Shown piece after piece: positions 6,484 to 57,678 of a stretch of 64,000 bases of DNA; position 1 is the stretch's first letter, and each line of letters opens with the position of its first letter. The stretch lies in the sequence record MH791411.1; one strand, given 5' to 3'. The position numbers were made by a program, and so were the translations under genes. The DNA is from Escherichia phage Ecwhy_1. The notes under the pieces are model-generated. The model had not been told where the DNA came from. It searched no databases and saw nothing but the letters and a program-made list of their open reading frames with translations.

Positions 6484-6707
6484 ACCTCTTTTACAATAAT
6501 GTCGATTTGCACAGGAATAGCAATCTCACTGTTGCATGAATAAACATCTGCACAGTACTCAATATCTAGTACTTCATAGTATTTTTCAAAGCCACAGATT
6601 GTAAGATTCAACGTAGCACCAATAGCTGGCAATACGGGAAAGGATAAAAATGCAATTTTAGAATTAAATTCTTCATTAATATCTTGATATACAGTTGCCT
6701 GAATCAT
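6480..6707 (-). CDS. hypothetical protein
   Basis: Six-frame ORF, 75 aa, overlapping start/stop with neighbours. Confidence 0.4.
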   Translation of the reverse strand: MIQATVYQDINEEFNSKIAFLSFPVLPAIGATLNLTICGFEKYYEVLDIEYCADVYSCNSEIAIPVQIDIIVKEV

Positions 6708-7288
6708 AATGGTAACTCCTGAAGTGGTTTAATAATACTCAGTACTGGGTGATTTTCAATCATTGGTCGCCCTGGTACACCTGTTAGCACAACTGGAATC
6801 GAACTAATGTCTTTTACATAGTTGAATCCCTCAAATGTGAATTCTTGCTTTTTCTCATTATACAATACCCACAGAATAACGTCAGCTTTTTTCTGTATAT
6901 TTTTTAACTGTCGAGTACTAACACATGGTCCAAAGTCGGTCCACGATTTGTACTTGATACCTTTCACTTCAATTCTTAAGTTGTTTACTTTGATATCACA
7001 TTCCCCATCACGTCCATCACTTTGGAACGCTGGATCGATGTTAAGTGCAATACCTGAATAGTTTTCAATTTCATTAAAAAGTACAAATGACGCATGTTCA
7101 CATACCATCCCCACAAAATGACTGTGAGCGTGATTAAATCCATACGGCGATTTACTTGCAGGTGCAAGAATTTTATATCGTTCGGATTTCTCAATTGCTT
7201 TAGCCATAAAAGAATCAGCTTCATCTTTGTATAGCTTAACAGTCATTTTACCATTTTTCAGTACTAAACGTTTTTCTACAACACTCAT
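6704..7288 (-). CDS. hypothetical protein
   Basis: Six-frame ORF, 194 aa; AGGGG RBS and promoter-like element upstream. Confidence 0.55.
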   Translation of the reverse strand: MSVVEKRLVLKNGKMTVKLYKDEADSFMAKAIEKSERYKILAPASKSPYGFNHAHSHFVGMVCEHASFVLFNEIENYSGIALNIDPAFQSDGRDGECDIKVNNLRIEVKGIKYKSWTDFGPCVSTRQLKNIQKKADVILWVLYNEKKQEFTFEGFNYVKDISSIPVVLTGVPGRPMIENHPVLSIIKPLQELPL

Positions 7289-7315
7289 AAAATCCCCTTA
7301 TTGATATTCCATTTA

Positions 7316-7344
7316 AGTATACGTCAAAAACACAACTCAGTCAA
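7316..7344 (-). promoter_or_regulatory. sigma-70-type promoter (TTGACT, 17-nt spacer, TATACT)
   Basis: Minus-strand TTGACT-N17-TATACT about 25 nt upstream of the start at 7288. Confidence 0.45.
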
Positions 7345-7404
7345 GGTGCTTTTTTACCTATCTAGAATAAATACGTTATAATAATTATACCAATGGAGGG
7401 ATGA

Positions 7405-8562
7405 ATGTCAAGATCGATTGCTGCTGCTGGACGATATAAGTTCGGTGAATGTGGATATGTAGTCGATGGTGCAATTCTCAACGATGGGACTAAACTCAAA
7501 AATGTTCGAATCTATCGTCAGAGAAGCCATAGATTATATGATTTACTTGATCCTGTAAGTAATGTAATTTATCGTAAAGTACAAATTACAACAAAGGATA
7601 TACAAGGATATCAATTAAACTACAACAAAACTAATGACCAAATCCTAAGTGAAATAAGAAAGAACTCTTTTTTCGTAAGAGGATACTCAGATGCTAAACT
7701 TGAATCAGATCCTACTGGGTTTGTTTATAAGTTTCTTTTGCACAAAACAATTCTAGGTAGTTCACAAACACTATATAATATGTACACCCCTGAATGCGGG
7801 ATTATAGATAGAGATATAGACAACATCCTTATGTTCCCAACGTTCGTAGGTGATGATTTGGTAGGTGGTCGCCTATTCAACGCAGGTTCAGCCATTGATA
7901 CGAATGGAATGCGTATTACCGTTATTCTTCCTGATGGAACAGAGTACTTCACTACTGAAATAATTGATGATGTTTTTAGTATTCCAGTTGATCCAATTAC
8001 TCAATCCGGTAAAGGAACCATCATACTCACTTCTGACATATATAATACCAAAACTATAGAATTTGATATACTAGAAAGCGGCGAAGATATTGACTTCGTT
8101 ACTTCAGTACTTCTATCTCAGTTTGAGTACACGTCCGATGGTATGTACATGGCAACTGTACCAGCTACTGTGCATGAGCGTGGTGAGTATCTTGCTCTAC
8201 AAGCATACAGTGGTGATTTATTCCAAATTGGAGTAGACCTCATTGTAGATCCTAGCGGTAATATTACTGTGTACCAAACTGATGATGCTCCAATCTCATT
8301 GAGTATTATTGGTAAAACCTTACACACCACTCCATATCACAACACGTATACCGATAGTGATTGGGTAGATGATGGTGATTCTATGTACACACTGTCCATT
8401 CCTGCCAGTGAACATGGTAAAATCCTCCCACAAGTTCAAGTCTATGCTGAAGACAATCACGTTGTACTAAGTGAAGTTGAACTAGATGCCGATGATAATG
8501 TTGTATTAAAAGTTGTTGAACCATTTGGCTGTACTGTAGTCATTGTTGGTTATAACGCATAA
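7405..8562 (+). CDS. hypothetical protein (isolated plus-strand gene)
   Basis: Six-frame ORF, 385 aa; GGAGGG RBS upstream; intrinsic terminator directly downstream. Confidence 0.6.
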   Translation: MSRSIAAAGRYKFGECGYVVDGAILNDGTKLKNVRIYRQRSHRLYDLLDPVSNVIYRKVQITTKDIQGYQLNYNKTNDQILSEIRKNSFFVRGYSDAKLESDPTGFVYKFLLHKTILGSSQTLYNMYTPECGIIDRDIDNILMFPTFVGDDLVGGRLFNAGSAIDTNGMRITVILPDGTEYFTTEIIDDVFSIPVDPITQSGKGTIILTSDIYNTKTIEFDILESGEDIDFVTSVLLSQFEYTSDGMYMATVPATVHERGEYLALQAYSGDLFQIGVDLIVDPSGNITVYQTDDAPISLSIIGKTLHTTPYHNTYTDSDWVDDGDSMYTLSIPASEHGKILPQVQVYAEDNHVVLSEVELDADDNVVLKVVEPFGCTVVIVGYNA

Positions 8563-27670: not shown

Positions 27671-28201
27671 TTAATCGAGTATAGTAACTTCAATCAAACG
27701 AATTTCGATGAATTCGTTTTCAGTTTCCCATGATGAACCTAATTTCTTATTAAGTTCAGTTTTAACATCACTTTTAAATTTTCCCATAGTATTAGGAATA
27801 ATTTGTTTGGTTAGTTTGTCATAACCACAATAAAACATAGGTTTCTCCCTTCGAGATATTAGCTCAACAAAATCCTTTGGATATGCAGGTATATTATGCA
27901 TCACTTCATGAATGCACTCAGTACTTGAATCTTGTACTTTGTACATTACATTAAGTTTACCTTTGAAAGTGCGAATCATATCAACAATAATACCTTTACC
28001 GGATTTAAGTAAAGTTCCATTCTTTGTATGAGAACAATAGAATACCTCATCACCAATATTAGGATAGTACAAATTAAATTCTAATTCTTCCTTTGATGAC
28101 TGACGTTGAAATTTCATTACACGTTCAGTATAGGTGGGGTAGTTCTTCATGTTCAAAAGAATATCTCTCTTAGTAAGTGTGATATAACTGGCATAGTCCA
28201 T
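27671..28201 (-). CDS. hypothetical protein
   Basis: Six-frame ORF, 176 aa; overlaps the methyltransferase gene by about 50 nt. Confidence 0.45.
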   Translation of the reverse strand: MDYASYITLTKRDILLNMKNYPTYTERVMKFQRQSSKEELEFNLYYPNIGDEVFYCSHTKNGTLLKSGKGIIVDMIRTFKGKLNVMYKVQDSSTECIHEVMHNIPAYPKDFVELISRREKPMFYCGYDKLTKQIIPNTMGKFKSDVKTELNKKLGSSWETENEFIEIRLIEVTILD

Positions 28202-29013
28202 CCATTCCCAAGCATTTTGTATGCTTGTGTCTTACTAGACACTTTAAAGAAATCTACAGGAATACCCTGTAATTTACAACATTCTACTACACTTAAGTGT
28301 CTATAGTCAATATTTCTTTTACCATTCTCCAATAGATATTGACGATTAATCGTTGGGTCACGAAACACCAACTGTCGTCTTGATTTATTAAAGTACTGGT
28401 TACAATCACCACCCTTAAAATAGTTAGCATCTATACAGTACGAAGCGGTTCTGTCAGTGTACCAACCATCTTCAATGATATCTTGAAGTTTAGGGGCATT
28501 TGATAATGCAGGTGGTATAAAAAGCTTATCAGTACTGCACCAGTAGTATCTCTGCCTGAAGTGAGGCGTATAATGCTGGGAATTTATCAGTACTGGTGTG
28601 ATTCCTAAAATACTATTAATGTATTCTTTGAAATCTTCCTTCATTTTAACATTCTCGAACAGAAATTGCAAGTTTGGATTTACACTTTTGATGTGCTCAA
28701 AAATATCAACCATAACCAAAAATAACTGTCCACGTATATCATTCAAGCCACCTTGCTTACCAGCAACAGACCAGGCTTGACATGGGAATCCTCCCATGAG
28801 TAAATCTATCTTATCCCACTCAATATCCCATTCTTTCCACTTAGTCACATCACCTAACTGGATAATATCAGGAAAATTCTCGGAAGATTCAGCAATTGCG
28901 TACTTGTCAATTTCAGATGAGTAATATTTTTCAACTGGAATACCTGCATCAGCCAATGCCATATATCCAACGCTCATTCCATTAAAAAGTGACAGTACTC
29001 TGATAGGTTTCAT
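28153..29013 (-). CDS. DNA (cytosine-5)-methyltransferase
   Basis: Motif IV GGFPCQAWSVAG, motif VI FLFENV, motif VIII FRQRYYW, motif X MLGNGWTMPV, motif I-like LFNGMSVG; no restriction endonuclease partner seen. Confidence 0.8.
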   Translation of the reverse strand: MKPIRVLSLFNGMSVGYMALADAGIPVEKYYSSEIDKYAIAESSENFPDIIQLGDVTKWKEWDIEWDKIDLLMGGFPCQAWSVAGKQGGLNDIRGQLFLVMVDIFEHIKSVNPNLQFLFENVKMKEDFKEYINSILGITPVLINSQHYTPHFRQRYYWCSTDKLFIPPALSNAPKLQDIIEDGWYTDRTASYCIDANYFKGGDCNQYFNKSRRQLVFRDPTINRQYLLENGKRNIDYRHLSVVECCKLQGIPVDFFKVSSKTQAYKMLGNGWTMPVISHLLREIFF

Positions 29014-33938: not shown

Positions 33939-34357
33939 ACTGGATAAGCCTTCATAAATTGTTTTAGAACTCCAAACTTAGAAGCACTGTAATCATACTG
34001 ATAACTTAGCTCACGTTTATCATTCATTCGATAAACCATATGATTGTTTGGATAACCTATTCTAACAGGTTTGTTAGGATTTGCAAGCAAAATTGCCCAT
34101 TCTTTTACAGGAAAAACGTTTTCAGATAACATCTTCACATCTTTACTGTAATACTTCATTGCTTGGGTACAGTGCTTGTAATCTTCAGCACTCAGTTCTT
34201 CACACACAACACTGTGTGTTTCAGTACTGGATACCCATGACTCTTCTTCATAATATAAGTCAATTACATCTTCTACGGTATAGCTATCAGGTAAATCATA
34301 ATATACCCAATTACTAAAACCAGAGCTTACACCAACTCGAATTCGATAGTACTTCAT
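33935..34357 (-). CDS. hypothetical protein
   Basis: Six-frame ORF, 140 aa. Confidence 0.5.
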   Translation of the reverse strand: MKYYRIRVGVSSGFSNWVYYDLPDSYTVEDVIDLYYEEESWVSSTETHSVVCEELSAEDYKHCTQAMKYYSKDVKMLSENVFPVKEWAILLANPNKPVRIGYPNNHMVYRMNDKRELSYQYDYSASKFGVLKQFMKAYPV

Positions 34358-34599
34358 ATTTTTTTATCATCCGATTTTACATAATAGTAACATACAATGC
34401 AGTGAATTACAAGAAGAATAATTTCTACTACATTCAGTGCCACAACATGCCCTTGCGGGACCGTAAGTGACAATAACAACATTATAGTAGGTATTACGAA
34501 TATTGTCAATGTTTTTTTCATTTTATTTCCTTGTGGGACCATAAGTGACAATAACAACATTATAGTAGGTATTACGAATAATGTCCATGTTTTTTTCAT
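34354..34599 (-). CDS. small membrane / signal-peptide protein with duplicated N-terminus
   Basis: Six-frame ORF, 81 aa; residues 1-26 and 27-52 are near-identical because of a 78-bp tandem DNA duplication; true start may be the second Met (34521). Confidence 0.45.
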   Translation of the reverse strand: MKKTWTLFVIPTIMLLLSLMVPQGNKMKKTLTIFVIPTIMLLLSLTVPQGHVVALNVVEIILLVIHCIVCYYYVKSDDKKI

Positions 34600-34606
34600 T
34601 TTATTT
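34451..34606. repeat. 2 x 78-bp near-identical tandem direct repeat
   Basis: Copies at 34451..34528 and 34529..34606 differ at a few positions; each carries an RBS-like stretch, an ATG and a hydrophobic N-terminal coding segment. Confidence 0.8.
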
Positions 34607-34832
34607 CCTTAATGTAGGCAAATGGTAAAAATACAACCTCTACCCCAGGAAATGCAGTTGCGAGTGCATCAACTATAGATTTGTTTTTATTACATTGCCA
34701 TACTTTTGTAACTTTGTGCTGGAATACCTTGCCATCTTTTACTAACCAATACATTTGCATTTTAACAGTACTGTTATCAGATGGTATTAGTAAATCTTCC
34801 ATATCATATGAATTAAAGATTCTCTCGTTCAT
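34596..34832 (-). CDS. hypothetical protein
   Basis: Six-frame ORF, 78 aa. Confidence 0.45.
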   Translation of the reverse strand: MNERIFNSYDMEDLLIPSDNSTVKMQMYWLVKDGKVFQHKVTKVWQCNKNKSIVDALATAFPGVEVVFLPFAYIKEIK

Positions 34833-35091
34833 ATAATCTCCTAGTGAAAAAAGCCAGATTCTTTCTTATATATTCGGCGACACAATCAGTAGTTTGTGTA
34901 TTTGTGAATGCAACAACTTCATTCGATACACCATTCCCATTACACAATGGACAAATCCCCATATACTTAGGTGTTGGAACTGTATCTAGTTTATATTTCC
35001 CTGAAGATATCATGTATTGTTGTGGTAATACATCCAAAGAAATAATATAATCTTCATCGAATTGCTTACAACATACCCAACATTTACTCAT
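34813..35091 (-). CDS. hypothetical zinc-finger-like protein
   Basis: Six-frame ORF, 92 aa; CWVCC ... CPLCNG cysteine clusters. Confidence 0.45.
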   Translation of the reverse strand: MSKCWVCCKQFDEDYIISLDVLPQQYMISSGKYKLDTVPTPKYMGICPLCNGNGVSNEVVAFTNTQTTDCVAEYIRKNLAFFTRRLYERENL

Positions 35092-35575
35092 TGTGGTTCT
35101 CCTTCAAAACAATTCTTATATCTTCGAATGTTTTAACAAACCAGTCATGTTCATCAGATACATCAACCACCTTCCCACCATAAACATAGTAATGATAGAA
35201 GGGTAACTTACTTTTCCTCAATCGTTCAGCAAGTTCTGGGTTTTGAAATATCTTAGCACATATTGCATCCTGGATACAAGAAATGCATTCGGGTGTCATT
35301 TCAATACGGTCGTGCATATACTTGTTCGCCGCTGCTTTTGCAGCAGCACCCGACACTTTTCTAAGATCATCATGTTTCTGGCCTGTTAAAAACCAAAAAT
35401 AAAAAGTTTCTACCGATGGGAACCAACCGTATGGTTCTAAGGTAAAACTATGTGACGAAAAGTTAGATAGATCCCTACCTAACTTAGTTTTAGCTTTACT
35501 ATAGATATTAATGTGTCTGTATCCGTCATCAGTAGGGTCAATATAGTTAAATGACTCTTCAGGAAATTCAAACAT
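35084..35575 (-). CDS. NADAR (YbiA/DUF1768)-like protein
   Basis: INIYSKAKTKLGRDLSNFSSHSF ... GWFPSVETFYFWFL resembles the NADAR core pattern (..YS...LSNF...F..G..F.S.E..Y) as recalled. Confidence 0.4.
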   Translation of the reverse strand: MFEFPEESFNYIDPTDDGYRHINIYSKAKTKLGRDLSNFSSHSFTLEPYGWFPSVETFYFWFLTGQKHDDLRKVSGAAAKAAANKYMHDRIEMTPECISCIQDAICAKIFQNPELAERLRKSKLPFYHYYVYGGKVVDVSDEHDWFVKTFEDIRIVLKENHNE

Positions 35576-35577
35576 AA

Positions 35578-35931
35578 TTACTCTTCTTCACCAGATGGTG
35601 TACCACGCAGTTTATCAAAATCAACCCAAATACCATGCTGGTTTTTGAAGCGACATTTCTCATAGTACCAGCTATAGTCGGTTTCAACACCCTGAGAAAT
35701 TGAACGAACACTACAGTCATACATATTGTATAAATGTGTACGTACAATGAATGTTCCTATAAGAAGAACAAACACAACAATCCCAGTACAGATCTTTGGA
35801 TGATCCATAATTAGGTCCAACACAGAACTGGTTTCAGTACTATCAATTTTACTACGACCGATAGCAACAACTTTCAGTACTACTAATGATACCAGTAATG
35901 AAATAACAAGAACACTCAAATAAATTAGCAT
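35578..35931 (-). CDS. hypothetical membrane protein
   Basis: Six-frame ORF, 117 aa, two hydrophobic segments. Confidence 0.5.
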   Translation of the reverse strand: MLIYLSVLVISLLVSLVVLKVVAIGRSKIDSTETSSVLDLIMDHPKICTGIVVFVLLIGTFIVRTHLYNMYDCSVRSISQGVETDYSWYYEKCRFKNQHGIWVDFDKLRGTPSGEEE

Positions 35932-39556: not shown

Positions 39557-40699
39557 TTACTTGTTAGCTTTTTCAGCAATTTCACGAAGAGTATCTTCGA
39601 GTTCATGAGAGAGTTTTGCGATTTCAATCTTAGCACGCTCACGCTCTTCTTTACCTTTCTTCTCTTCAATCAGTACTGCTTCGATGCTATCGATCATTGT
39701 TTTGTGTACATTACGCAATGTTTTAATATCCACGATACCACGATTATTTGCTTTAGCAGCATCCAACATGTTAGTTGCTACCATTTTAGAGTTTACTTCG
39801 AGTAAACGGTTAGTTTCATTGTCAATCAGATTACCCAACTCATTGTCTTTACGTTGACGTTCGGAAATCAACTGTTCAGCCAATTGTGATTTCCATGCTG
39901 GAATAACAACTGATTTCAAATCCTCAAACTTAGAAACAGTGTTGAGGTTTACTTTCTTCATACTCATCAGGCGAGGACCGCTCAGTTCACACATCATGAT
40001 AAGACGACGAATCTTATCTTCCTGTTTAGAAAGAGCTTCACAAATCATCTTTTGCTCCTGGATTGCAAAAGAATCAACGTCAGGGTTCGCTTGCATTGCT
40101 ACCAATTCAGCATCTTGTGCTTTGGTAACTTCTTCCAACTCAACTAACGTATCACGCAGTTCAAAGAGATAGTTTTTGTTTTCGTTGTAAGCAGTGTCTA
40201 GCCATGCACATTCCCCATGCTGGCGGTTAATACCAACCTGAAGAGTGTTCATGATTTCATCAATTTGTTCTTTACTGTTTTTGTACTGATCGCCAACTTT
40301 CTGTTTAGCATTAACAAAAAGTTTTTTGACCCAGCCTACGATTGATTTATCATCCTGTAGACTATCAATATCAACTGCACGAGTCAATGTCAAGATAGTA
40401 GTAATAGACTTACCGAATTCGGTATTATCATCAGTGACGTTAACTTTTGACATGATTTCATCAGCCAAACGTCCTACACCTGCCCCAGCGGTGGTTCCGA
40501 TGGTATTAATATTCTGCACAGTTAACGCCATACTGTTGCCTTTAGTATCTTTCAGTACTGGAAGTGACTTGGACTGTTGTTCGAAGATATCAGTTGCGTC
40601 AATTGTGTGTGCTGCTGTTTTGGTAGTACGTTTGGCAGTTTTGGTTGCTTTGGCTTGTTTAACTGTTGCTTTTTTCGGATTGATTTCTTTCTCGGACAT
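39557..40699 (-). CDS. TelA / YaaN-like protein (toxic anion resistance family)
   Basis: C-terminal NRGIVDIKTLRNVHKTMIDSIEAV block resembles the conserved TelA region as recalled; long helical protein. Start moved from 40774 to the Met at 40699, which has a GAGGA RBS and lies downstream of the promoter. Confidence 0.45.
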   Translation of the reverse strand: MSEKEINPKKATVKQAKATKTAKRTTKTAAHTIDATDIFEQQSKSLPVLKDTKGNSMALTVQNINTIGTTAGAGVGRLADEIMSKVNVTDDNTEFGKSITTILTLTRAVDIDSLQDDKSIVGWVKKLFVNAKQKVGDQYKNSKEQIDEIMNTLQVGINRQHGECAWLDTAYNENKNYLFELRDTLVELEEVTKAQDAELVAMQANPDVDSFAIQEQKMICEALSKQEDKIRRLIMMCELSGPRLMSMKKVNLNTVSKFEDLKSVVIPAWKSQLAEQLISERQRKDNELGNLIDNETNRLLEVNSKMVATNMLDAAKANNRGIVDIKTLRNVHKTMIDSIEAVLIEEKKGKEERERAKIEIAKLSHELEDTLREIAEKANK

Positions 40700-40745
40700 T
40701 GTGTATTCCTCAGTTAATTTAAGATAGTGTTGCTCAGTGATAAAC

Positions 40746-40774
40746 ATTCTACAGGCAACACTCAGTACTGTCAA
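40746..40774 (-). promoter_or_regulatory. sigma-70-type promoter (TTGACA, 17-nt spacer, TAGAAT)
   Basis: Minus-strand TTGACA-N17-TAGAAT; predicted start site about 40 nt upstream of the ATG at 40699. Confidence 0.5.

Positions 40775-54435: not shown

Positions 54436-56578
<2,143 letters not shown>

Positions 56579-56615: not shown

Positions 56616-57678
<1,063 letters not shown>

Follow-up and report, generated by a model that had tools for sequence, protein, structure and literature searches.

A candidate NADAR-family ADP-ribosyl hydrolase, from a large phage clade akin to T4 gp30.3, in an Asteriusvirus-type jumbo phage of Escherichia coli

NADAR enzymes cut the N-glycosidic bond that links the N2 of guanine to the distal ribose of ADP-ribose (ADPr), and by this cleavage DarG1 detoxifies the toxin DarT1 (PMC11543638, PMC11125620). 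Four NADAR families are recognised, general, YbiA-type, DarG1-type and phage (gp30.3), and they differ in a residue of the last hairpin, which is Glu in the general and YbiA-type families, Asp in the DarG1-type family and His in the phage family (PMC11543638, PMC11125620). In T4, gp30.3 (AdfN) is necessary and sufficient for the resistance of T4 and T2 to DarTG1 and strips ADPr from DNA, and this function needs both E36 and K43; rescue of phages from DarTG1 has also been seen with two unrelated phage NADARs (PMC11257639). Guanine-linked ADPr (G-ADPr) was hydrolysed by every NADAR family tested (PMC11125620). Here we examined a 163-amino-acid protein encoded in a 64,000-nucleotide stretch of Escherichia phage Ecwhy_1 (MH791411.1), referred to as the window. 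A first-pass annotation, made by eye, had suggested that this protein resembles NADAR domains and could reverse ADP-ribosylation by DarT-type toxins, a property that has indeed been established experimentally for phage NADARs acting against DarTG1 (PMC11257639, PMC11125620). The gene is as follows:

35084..35575, minus strand: coding sequence of 163 amino acids, a single-domain NADAR-fold protein and member of PHROG 652

By fold and homology, the 163-amino-acid protein almost certainly belongs to the NADAR superfamily. The pattern noticed in the first-pass annotation, YS...LSNF...F..G..FPSVE..Y, is present in IYSKAKTKLGRDLSNFSSHSFTLEPYGWFPSVETFYFW, as YS (residues 25-26), LSNF (36-39), F43 and G50-W-FPSVE(52-56)-TFY. 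Y25, S26, L36, S37, N38, F39, F52 and E56 were invariant in an alignment of 30 sequences (A1), for which 29 homologs had been collected. In a wider residue census, at which 176 clade members were aligned to the family hidden Markov model (HMM), E56 was again invariant and the other residues of the pattern were kept in 156-174 members.

Homology to NADARs was visible only through the family profile and the structure. With the single sequence, no match was obtained in Pfam or NCBIfam even at E<=10, PADLOC gave no match, phmmer against the PDB returned only a spurious carboxylesterase (E 0.8), and BLASTP found no alignment with T4 gp30.3. The assigned PHROGs, phrog_652 (E 1e-45) and phrog_11222, are both labelled 'unknown function'. 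The A1 profile, searched against the PDB, matched the P. nicotianae NADAR (8bau, E 2e-4) and YbiA (2b3w, E 6e-4), and weakly the G. lovleyi NADAR (8bat, E 0.75). The AlphaFold2 model made with A1 (predicted local distance difference test, pLDDT, 90.6; predicted template modelling score, pTM, 0.83) showed helices flanked on each side by a beta-hairpin, which fits the published description of the NADAR fold. Foldseek against the PDB retrieved exactly these three NADAR structures at a probability of 0.99-1.0, with all other structures below 0.05, and in the BFVD viral structure library most named matches, after the clade's own members, were annotated NADARs from giant viruses and phages. Comparison of profiles and structures had been set beforehand as the test that could refute the assignment. 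It recovered the NADAR fold, and the resemblance seen by eye was borne out by the PDB matches of the family profile and by the alignment with gp30.3 described below.

To place the clade among known NADARs, we compared it with alignments of the T4 gp30.3/AdfN family (A3) and of YbiA relatives (A6). In hhalign, the clade matched the gp30.3/AdfN family at 97.4% (E 1.5e-11, 138 columns) and YbiA at 95.2% (E 2.7e-8), and the score between gp30.3 and YbiA was 97.9% (E 6e-13). On these scores, the clade appears to form a branch of its own, similar in depth to the recognised NADAR families and somewhat nearer to gp30.3. Weak matches to Pfam Phage_30_3 (PF08010) were seen in 8 of the 30 relatives (best E 4.9e-4), and sub-threshold matches to Pfam NADAR (PF08719) in 4 of them (best E 0.024); the relative P0119 scored 27 bits against PF08010, at which the cut-off is 36 bits. 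The gp30.3 and YbiA HMMs each ranked the NADAR ORF (open reading frame) first among the 575 six-frame stretches of the window, and this six-frame search found no second NADAR there.

The gene is real and is under strong purifying selection. Its ORF has an ATG start and a TAA stop, the TAA of the upstream gene lies 2 nt ahead of its ATG, with the purine-rich GAAGAAGAG directly 5', and its 3' end overlaps the ATG of the next gene by 8 nt, as part of a co-directional packed array on the minus strand, which holds 110 of the 120 chosen ORFs in a simple ORF census of the window. The ortholog in phage genome ph0011 (~84% DNA identity over the region) is 93% identical at the protein level, with a ratio of nonsynonymous to synonymous substitution rates (dN/dS) of 0.025. 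Because of the packed array, the wide conservation, this ratio and the conservation of motif residues in the family, the ORF is far beyond chance.

The residues that carry the comparison of active sites are the following:

35474..35527, minus strand: residues 17-34, DGYRHINIYSKAKTKLGR, the first strand with a clade-specific, near-invariant motif
35459..35470, minus strand: residues 36-39, LSNF, the hallmark NADAR motif, near-invariant in the census
35408..35410, minus strand: E56, the Glu conserved in the S-x-E motif, in 176 of 176 members
35387..35389, minus strand: L63, the site of the canonical diphosphate-binding Lys, here replaced by Leu
35324..35338, minus strand: K80-A-A-A-N84, a degenerate NADAR 'AK..GR' motif, from the alignment to 8bau
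35186..35194, minus strand: H128-Y129-Y130, the start of the C-terminal beta-hairpin (model strands 129-132 and 135-138)
35141..35143, minus strand: W145, near-invariant (170 of 176), from hhalign of A1 against YbiA

Much of the NADAR centre is kept. LSNF aligns with LSNF of AdfN and of the P. nicotianae enzyme (PnNADAR) and with FSNF of YbiA, and the INIYS of the first strand with INFYS of YbiA. E56 is aligned with AdfN E36, PnNADAR E43, E88 of the E. coli C7 NADAR and YbiA E48, the Glu to which distal-ribose positioning and catalysis are attributed (PMC11543638, PMC11257639). K80, found in 175 of 176 members, corresponds to PnNADAR K75 and E. coli C7 K115. H128, found in 174 of 176, aligns with gp30.3 H123, the family-defining His that phage NADARs have where YbiA-type enzymes carry Glu and DarG1-type enzymes Asp (PMC11543638, PMC11125620). 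W145 aligns with the Trp of the YbiA and PnNADAR 'D..W' motif, and PnNADAR W133 makes a pyrophosphate contact (PMC11543638). In the segment of residues 17-34, the motif residues are D17, G18, H21, N23, Y25, S26, K27, T30, G33 and R34; N23 and G33 were present in all 176 members, D17 in 171, H21 in 170, K27 as K/R in 155 and R34 as R/K in 150.

The phosphate-binding side of the pocket appears altered. Seven residues after the Glu, where AdfN has K43, PnNADAR K50, E. coli C7 K95 and YbiA K55, the protein has L63 in the hhalign alignments with both gp30.3 and YbiA, and the assignment of this site is secure because no gap interrupts the register from E56 to the LRKVSG segment (conserved LR..G..AK). 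Thus, from the catalytic pair of AdfN, the Glu is kept and the Lys is gone. The census at this position gave S in 45 members, L in 41, G in 34, K in 16 and A in 15, with K/R in 17 of 176. Those 17 members read 'EGYWYWLKTG', and as a minority keeps the Lys, it is ancestral. In the 'AK..GR' region, 164 of 176 members have G at position 83, where this protein has A, and at position 84 most members have R (78 of 176) or K (47) where this protein has N, so that its motif reads AKAAAN. N84 stands at the site of PnNADAR R79, a pyrophosphate contact, and the Arg is missing in the sub-branch to which this phage belongs.

With Leu at position 63, phosphate binding must rely on other basic residues, and the conserved K27, R34, K80 and K85 are candidate substitutes. 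Compensation by K27 and R34 is possible; both are kept with or without Lys at position 63, and hence show no covariation with its loss. Taken as a whole, the conservation suggests that the catalytic centre works but holds the ADPr phosphates in a modified way.

The loss of a Lys deemed essential, and of the motif Arg in the sub-branch, could also be read as the mark of a non-catalytic binder or sponge, or of a YbiA-like metabolic N-glycosidase whose substrates would be riboflavin-pathway intermediates or other nucleotide intermediates. The characterised activity of YbiA is metabolic (PMC11125620), and one Salmonella phage relative is labelled 'putative N-glycosidase' in its record. We consider both of these highly improbable. 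The invariant E56, the nearly invariant H128 and the many pocket residues that are invariant or nearly so over ~2,100 clusters, together with the low dN/dS, fit a working active site, and the loss of the Lys is apparently tolerated, since the 17 members that keep it do so in an otherwise identical motif. As for a metabolic role, no riboflavin genes were found nearby in a Pfam sweep of the window.

Compared with the described families, the protein is most like T4 gp30.3/AdfN (PF08010), which likewise is a small phage protein made up of one NADAR-fold domain and gave the best profile-profile match. The two share LSNF, the Glu and the hairpin His, and both genes lie among small genes beside replication functions. 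On the other hand, BLASTP similarity is absent, the 163-amino-acid protein falls under the PF08010 gathering score, and L63 stands where AdfN has K43, which is essential in vivo. The clade also has a far more conserved N-terminal D-G-x-x-H-I-N-x-Y-S-K-x-x-T-x-L-G-R and an H-Y-Y where gp30.3 has H-S-I, and it is found in Asteriusvirus, RaK2-, CBB- and Vi1-like, Erwinia, Vibrio and Pseudomonas phages and not in T-even phages.

With YbiA (2b3w, PF08719), the protein shares the I-N-[FI]-Y-S strand, SNF, S-x-E, the A[KR]..GR region and the Trp aligned with D..W, although the identity is only 17%. YbiA has E125 on the last strand, a D130-x-x-W133-G-D-G-G loop and K55, whereas our protein has H128 and L63 and lacks the GDGG loop; the YbiA-type signature of a last-strand Glu with a D-x-x-W-G-D-G-G loop is represented only by W145. 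YbiA is, moreover, a chromosomal gene in a LexA-controlled operon (PMC11125620). The DarG1 NADARs (BC4488 family; G. lovleyi 8bat, E. coli C7), which are the functional paradigm for the reversal of guanine ADP-ribosylation by DarT1, share the Glu and the Lys equivalent to K115 (K80), but their Asp (D171), K95, N-terminal basic-channel elements and adjoining DarT1 are absent from the protein studied here. The DarG1 type is recognised by a hairpin Asp together with an adjoining DarT1 gene; here the hairpin residue is His, no DarT or other ADP-ribosyltransferase (ART) was found in the window, and PADLOC found nothing. Finally, NADAR(Bas32) and NADAR(Bas60) likewise belong to the phage-borne orphan NADARs outside the T-even group, and it is seen from them that NADARs of several independent lineages have been recruited against DarTG1 (PMC11257639). 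Compared by description only, they differ in being detectable by DELTA-BLAST against NADAR domains and in clustering with archaeal and bacterial NADARs, whereas our clade escapes the Pfam and NCBIfam models and is nearer to gp30.3.

The differences at the periphery of the active site between the clade and AdfN raise the possibility of another nucleic-acid target, that is, a C, T or A base, or RNA, modified by an ART other than DarT1, such as pierisin/ScARP-like, CmdT-like or YarT-like enzymes. YbiA-type and general NADARs remove cytosine-linked ADPr, which AdfN and DarG1 do not, and NADARs act on G-ADPr in RNA too. However, in the single comparison available the clade falls, by its His-type residue, with the enzymes that act on guanine only, and thymine-linked ADPr was removed by no NADAR tested (PMC11125620). 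We regard such a target as rather improbable.

The clade is very large. An exhaustive profile search found 2,098 cluster representatives (50% identity) at E<=1e-3, and 664 at E<=1e-30, and by tblastn 511 phage genomes carry the domain, among them jumbo phages of the Asteriusvirus, RaK2-like and CBB-like types, a large number of ~155-kb Vi1-like Salmonella and Klebsiella phages, and also Erwinia jumbo phages and phages of Vibrio and Pseudomonas. Nearly all orthologs in GenBank are named 'hypothetical protein', but the identical protein in phage Turkey3 is recorded as 'NADAR domain-containing protein'.

About half of the best 150 profile matches were multidomain. Among 80 multidomain relatives, the fusion partners were DUF4326 (27), YAcAr-SLOG (20), a DprA-like domain that is probably SLOG-related (11), Macro (6), DUF488-N3a (6), YpsA (1) and a canonical NADAR (1). 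Iyer, Burroughs and Aravind described SLOG/Macro/NADAR/DUF4326 combinations as phage modules that process nicotinamide adenine dinucleotide (NAD) and ADPr, and so the fusion partners tie the clade to ADPr chemistry independently of the fold. The relative P0119 (1415 amino acids) carries a canonical Pfam NADAR at residues 10-143 (E 1e-20), a domain of the divergent clade at ~547-698 and DUF4326 at 1185-1274, and the presence of two NADAR paralogs in one protein argues for differing specificities.

These architectures would fit a soluble target, namely low-molecular-weight ADPr derivatives that serve as immune signals or toxins of host NAD-consuming defences, such as TIR/Thoeris-type cyclic ADPr isomers or ADPr-1''-phosphate-like products, whose signalling would be blunted. 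The frequent partners SLOG (YAcAr, YpsA), Macro and the phosphatase-like DUF4326/DUF488 are predicted sensors or processors of soluble ADPr, the lost Lys and, in the sub-branch, the lost motif Arg would fit an altered mode of ligand binding, and P0119 suggests that canonical and clade domains are not redundant. Nevertheless, no NADAR is known from experiment to hydrolyse a soluble immune signal, base-linked ADPr was the substrate of every NADAR family tested, and the 163-amino-acid protein is a bare single domain whose would-be partners were found neither fused to it nor encoded nearby. A soluble target seems unlikely to us.

Somewhat broader is the proposal that the clade is a distinct NADAR branch with rewired ADPr recognition, which lost the canonical Lys in ~90% of its members and gained the invariant or near-invariant D-G-x-x-H-I-N-x-Y-S-K...T-x-L-G-R, and whose substrate is not DarT1-made G-ADPr on DNA. 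The substrate could then be another ADP-ribosylated base, RNA or a soluble ADPr immune signal. Such rewiring is a minority view, though one of some weight.

The surroundings of relatives in other phages bear on a further explanation, that the enzyme serves housekeeping, erasing or limiting the self-inflicted ADP-ribosylation by the phage's own Alt- or Mod-like ARTs, and would thus shield nucleic acids or proteins of the phage rather than oppose a host defence. The gene of relative P0020 (L004, 6001-6435) lies tail-to-tail with that of a 392-amino-acid ADPrib_exo_Tox ART (6500-7678) on a 117-kb metagenomic phage contig, an arrangement reminiscent of T4, in which gene 30.3 is ~3 kb from alt, and co-expression of phage NADARs and ARTs has been noted in the literature. 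However, adjacency to an ART was seen in only one of the five relatives' contexts examined, none was found in this window, and the phenotype of T4 AdfN is explained by the host DarTG1. Housekeeping is thus very improbable as the main role. The other contexts had ligase, helicase, exonuclease or TelA genes, in early or replication-type neighbourhoods, and no recurrent gene partner was found among the five.

The best explanation, by analogy with the characterised enzymes, is that the protein is a free-standing NADAR hydrolase from a large phage clade sister to the gp30.3/AdfN family. On the same analogy, it probably has ADPr-linked hydrolase activity. That it acts specifically as a counter-defence ADP-ribosyl N-glycohydrolase against DarT1-type guanine ADP-ribosylation of phage DNA is our tentative preference, held at a little under even confidence, and the anti-DarT role proposed in the first-pass annotation is in this sense plausible. 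The enzyme would be made together with the adjoining small genes, just downstream of the replication module, bind an ADP-ribosylated nucleobase and sever the N-glycosidic bond that joins this base to the distal ribose. As a substrate, N2-ADP-ribosyl-guanine put on phage DNA by a DarT1-type toxin has the best precedent; its cleavage would free ADPr and make the DNA replicable again, in the way that AdfN acts for T4. The ADPr phosphates would be held by other basic residues, and the specificity for substrate may differ from that of AdfN.

Several points weigh against this DarT1-directed role. The protein lies below the thresholds of Pfam NADAR, Pfam Phage_30_3, NCBIfam and PADLOC. The Lys that it lacks is essential in the E. 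coli C7 NADAR (K95), and AdfN K43A is inactive (PMC11257639 for AdfN); the Arg at the pyrophosphate-contact site is lost as well. A window-wide Pfam sweep over the 64 kb found replication, nucleotide and translation genes and no ART, Macro, SLOG, Nudix or NAD-salvage gene; with no DarT found there either, the local context gives no support for counter-defence. In addition, NADAR activity in vitro does not guarantee protection in vivo (PMC11125620), and the Aravind group holds that most phage NADARs act on soluble ADPr derivatives and not on DNA adducts. Because of the missing Lys, the degenerate AK..GR and the SLOG/Macro/DUF4326 fusions, soluble ADPr signals, other ADP-ribosylated bases and RNA are alternative candidate substrates.

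The phage that carries the gene is an Asteriusvirus-type E. coli jumbo phage. A 3-kb region around the gene showed 99.5% identity to BF17 and fEgEco12, 99.4% to Turkey3 and ~84% to classified Asteriusvirus genomes. In the 5' direction with respect to transcription are genes for topoisomerase II subunits, RNase H, dihydrofolate reductase, and clamp-loader-like and DNA polymerase III alpha-like proteins, together with a PIF1-type helicase, an exonuclease, TelA and a phage translation initiation factor 3 (IF3), and 3' of the NADAR gene are dozens of small ORFs with no assigned function. No significant Pfam domain was detected in any of nine neighbour genes.

The gene that overlaps the NADAR stop by 8 nt (34813-35091, minus strand) encodes a 92-amino-acid Cys-rich protein (CWVCC...CPLCNG) with the look of a small zinc ribbon and no family match, and it appears translationally coupled to the NADAR gene. 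Directly upstream (35578-35931, minus strand) is the gene for a 117-amino-acid protein with hydrophobic N-terminal segments. Its ph0011 ortholog is labelled 'WWE domain-containing protein', which would make an ADPr-binding theme, but Pfam found no WWE in the protein of our phage, only a sub-threshold DUF6097 (E 0.004), and as the label was not reproduced we dropped the idea of an ADPr-themed gene pair.

Other features of the window were recorded as well. A 78-bp tandem duplication (34451-34610; 2.1 copies, 95% match) within the ORF 34354-34599 (minus strand) doubles a transmembrane segment predicted in a small protein (MKKTWTLFVIPTIMLLLSLMVPQG / MKKTLTIFVIPTIMLLLSLTVPQG); in Turkey3 and ph0011 the ortholog of this ORF is only 168 bp, and the duplication probably accounts for a 78-bp megablast gap against Turkey3, WPEC3 and others. 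The IF3 homolog (IF3_N 3e-16, IF3_C 2e-12) lies at 57175-57678 and a sigma-70-like factor with regions 2 and 3 at 1662-2630, both on the minus strand. Among the replication genes are a TelA-like gene (39557-40774, E 2e-37) and a KTSC-domain gene (55996-56541, E 6e-14), also on the minus strand; TelA is ~2 kb from the NADAR-like gene of relative P0011 (L011) too, which suggests conserved synteny. Between 1.6 and 33.4 kb of the window, one ORF matched a C-5 cytosine DNA methylase (E 5e-37), likely the 286-amino-acid ORF at 28153-29013 (minus strand) with a PCQAWS motif, and DNA methylation could affect the recognition of substrate by a DNA-directed NADAR.

Part of this was already known, as the Turkey3 record names the identical protein a NADAR, and overall the result fits existing knowledge and overturns none of it. 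What is new is modest but concrete: a large, mostly unannotated branch, missed by curated models, nearest to gp30.3 and without the 'essential' Lys. As orphan enzymes of antitoxin type that reverse the ADP-ribosylation of DNA by DarTG1, phage NADARs form a class of enzymatic counter-defence that was established recently, and this class is here extended to E. coli jumbo phages (Asteriusvirus) and to a very large clade that is 'hypothetical protein' in most phage records examined. Among the carriers of the clade are the Vi1-like Salmonella, Klebsiella, Erwinia and Vibrio phages under study for therapy and biocontrol, and if the clade acts against toxins of the DarT1 type, predictions of host range for such phages ought to weigh it. 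As most members lack a Lys deemed essential in all characterised NADARs, the clade is a natural experiment on ADPr binding and the choice of substrate, and if its ADPr recognition has been rewired, it would represent counter-defence against a system without a known phage NADAR antagonist.

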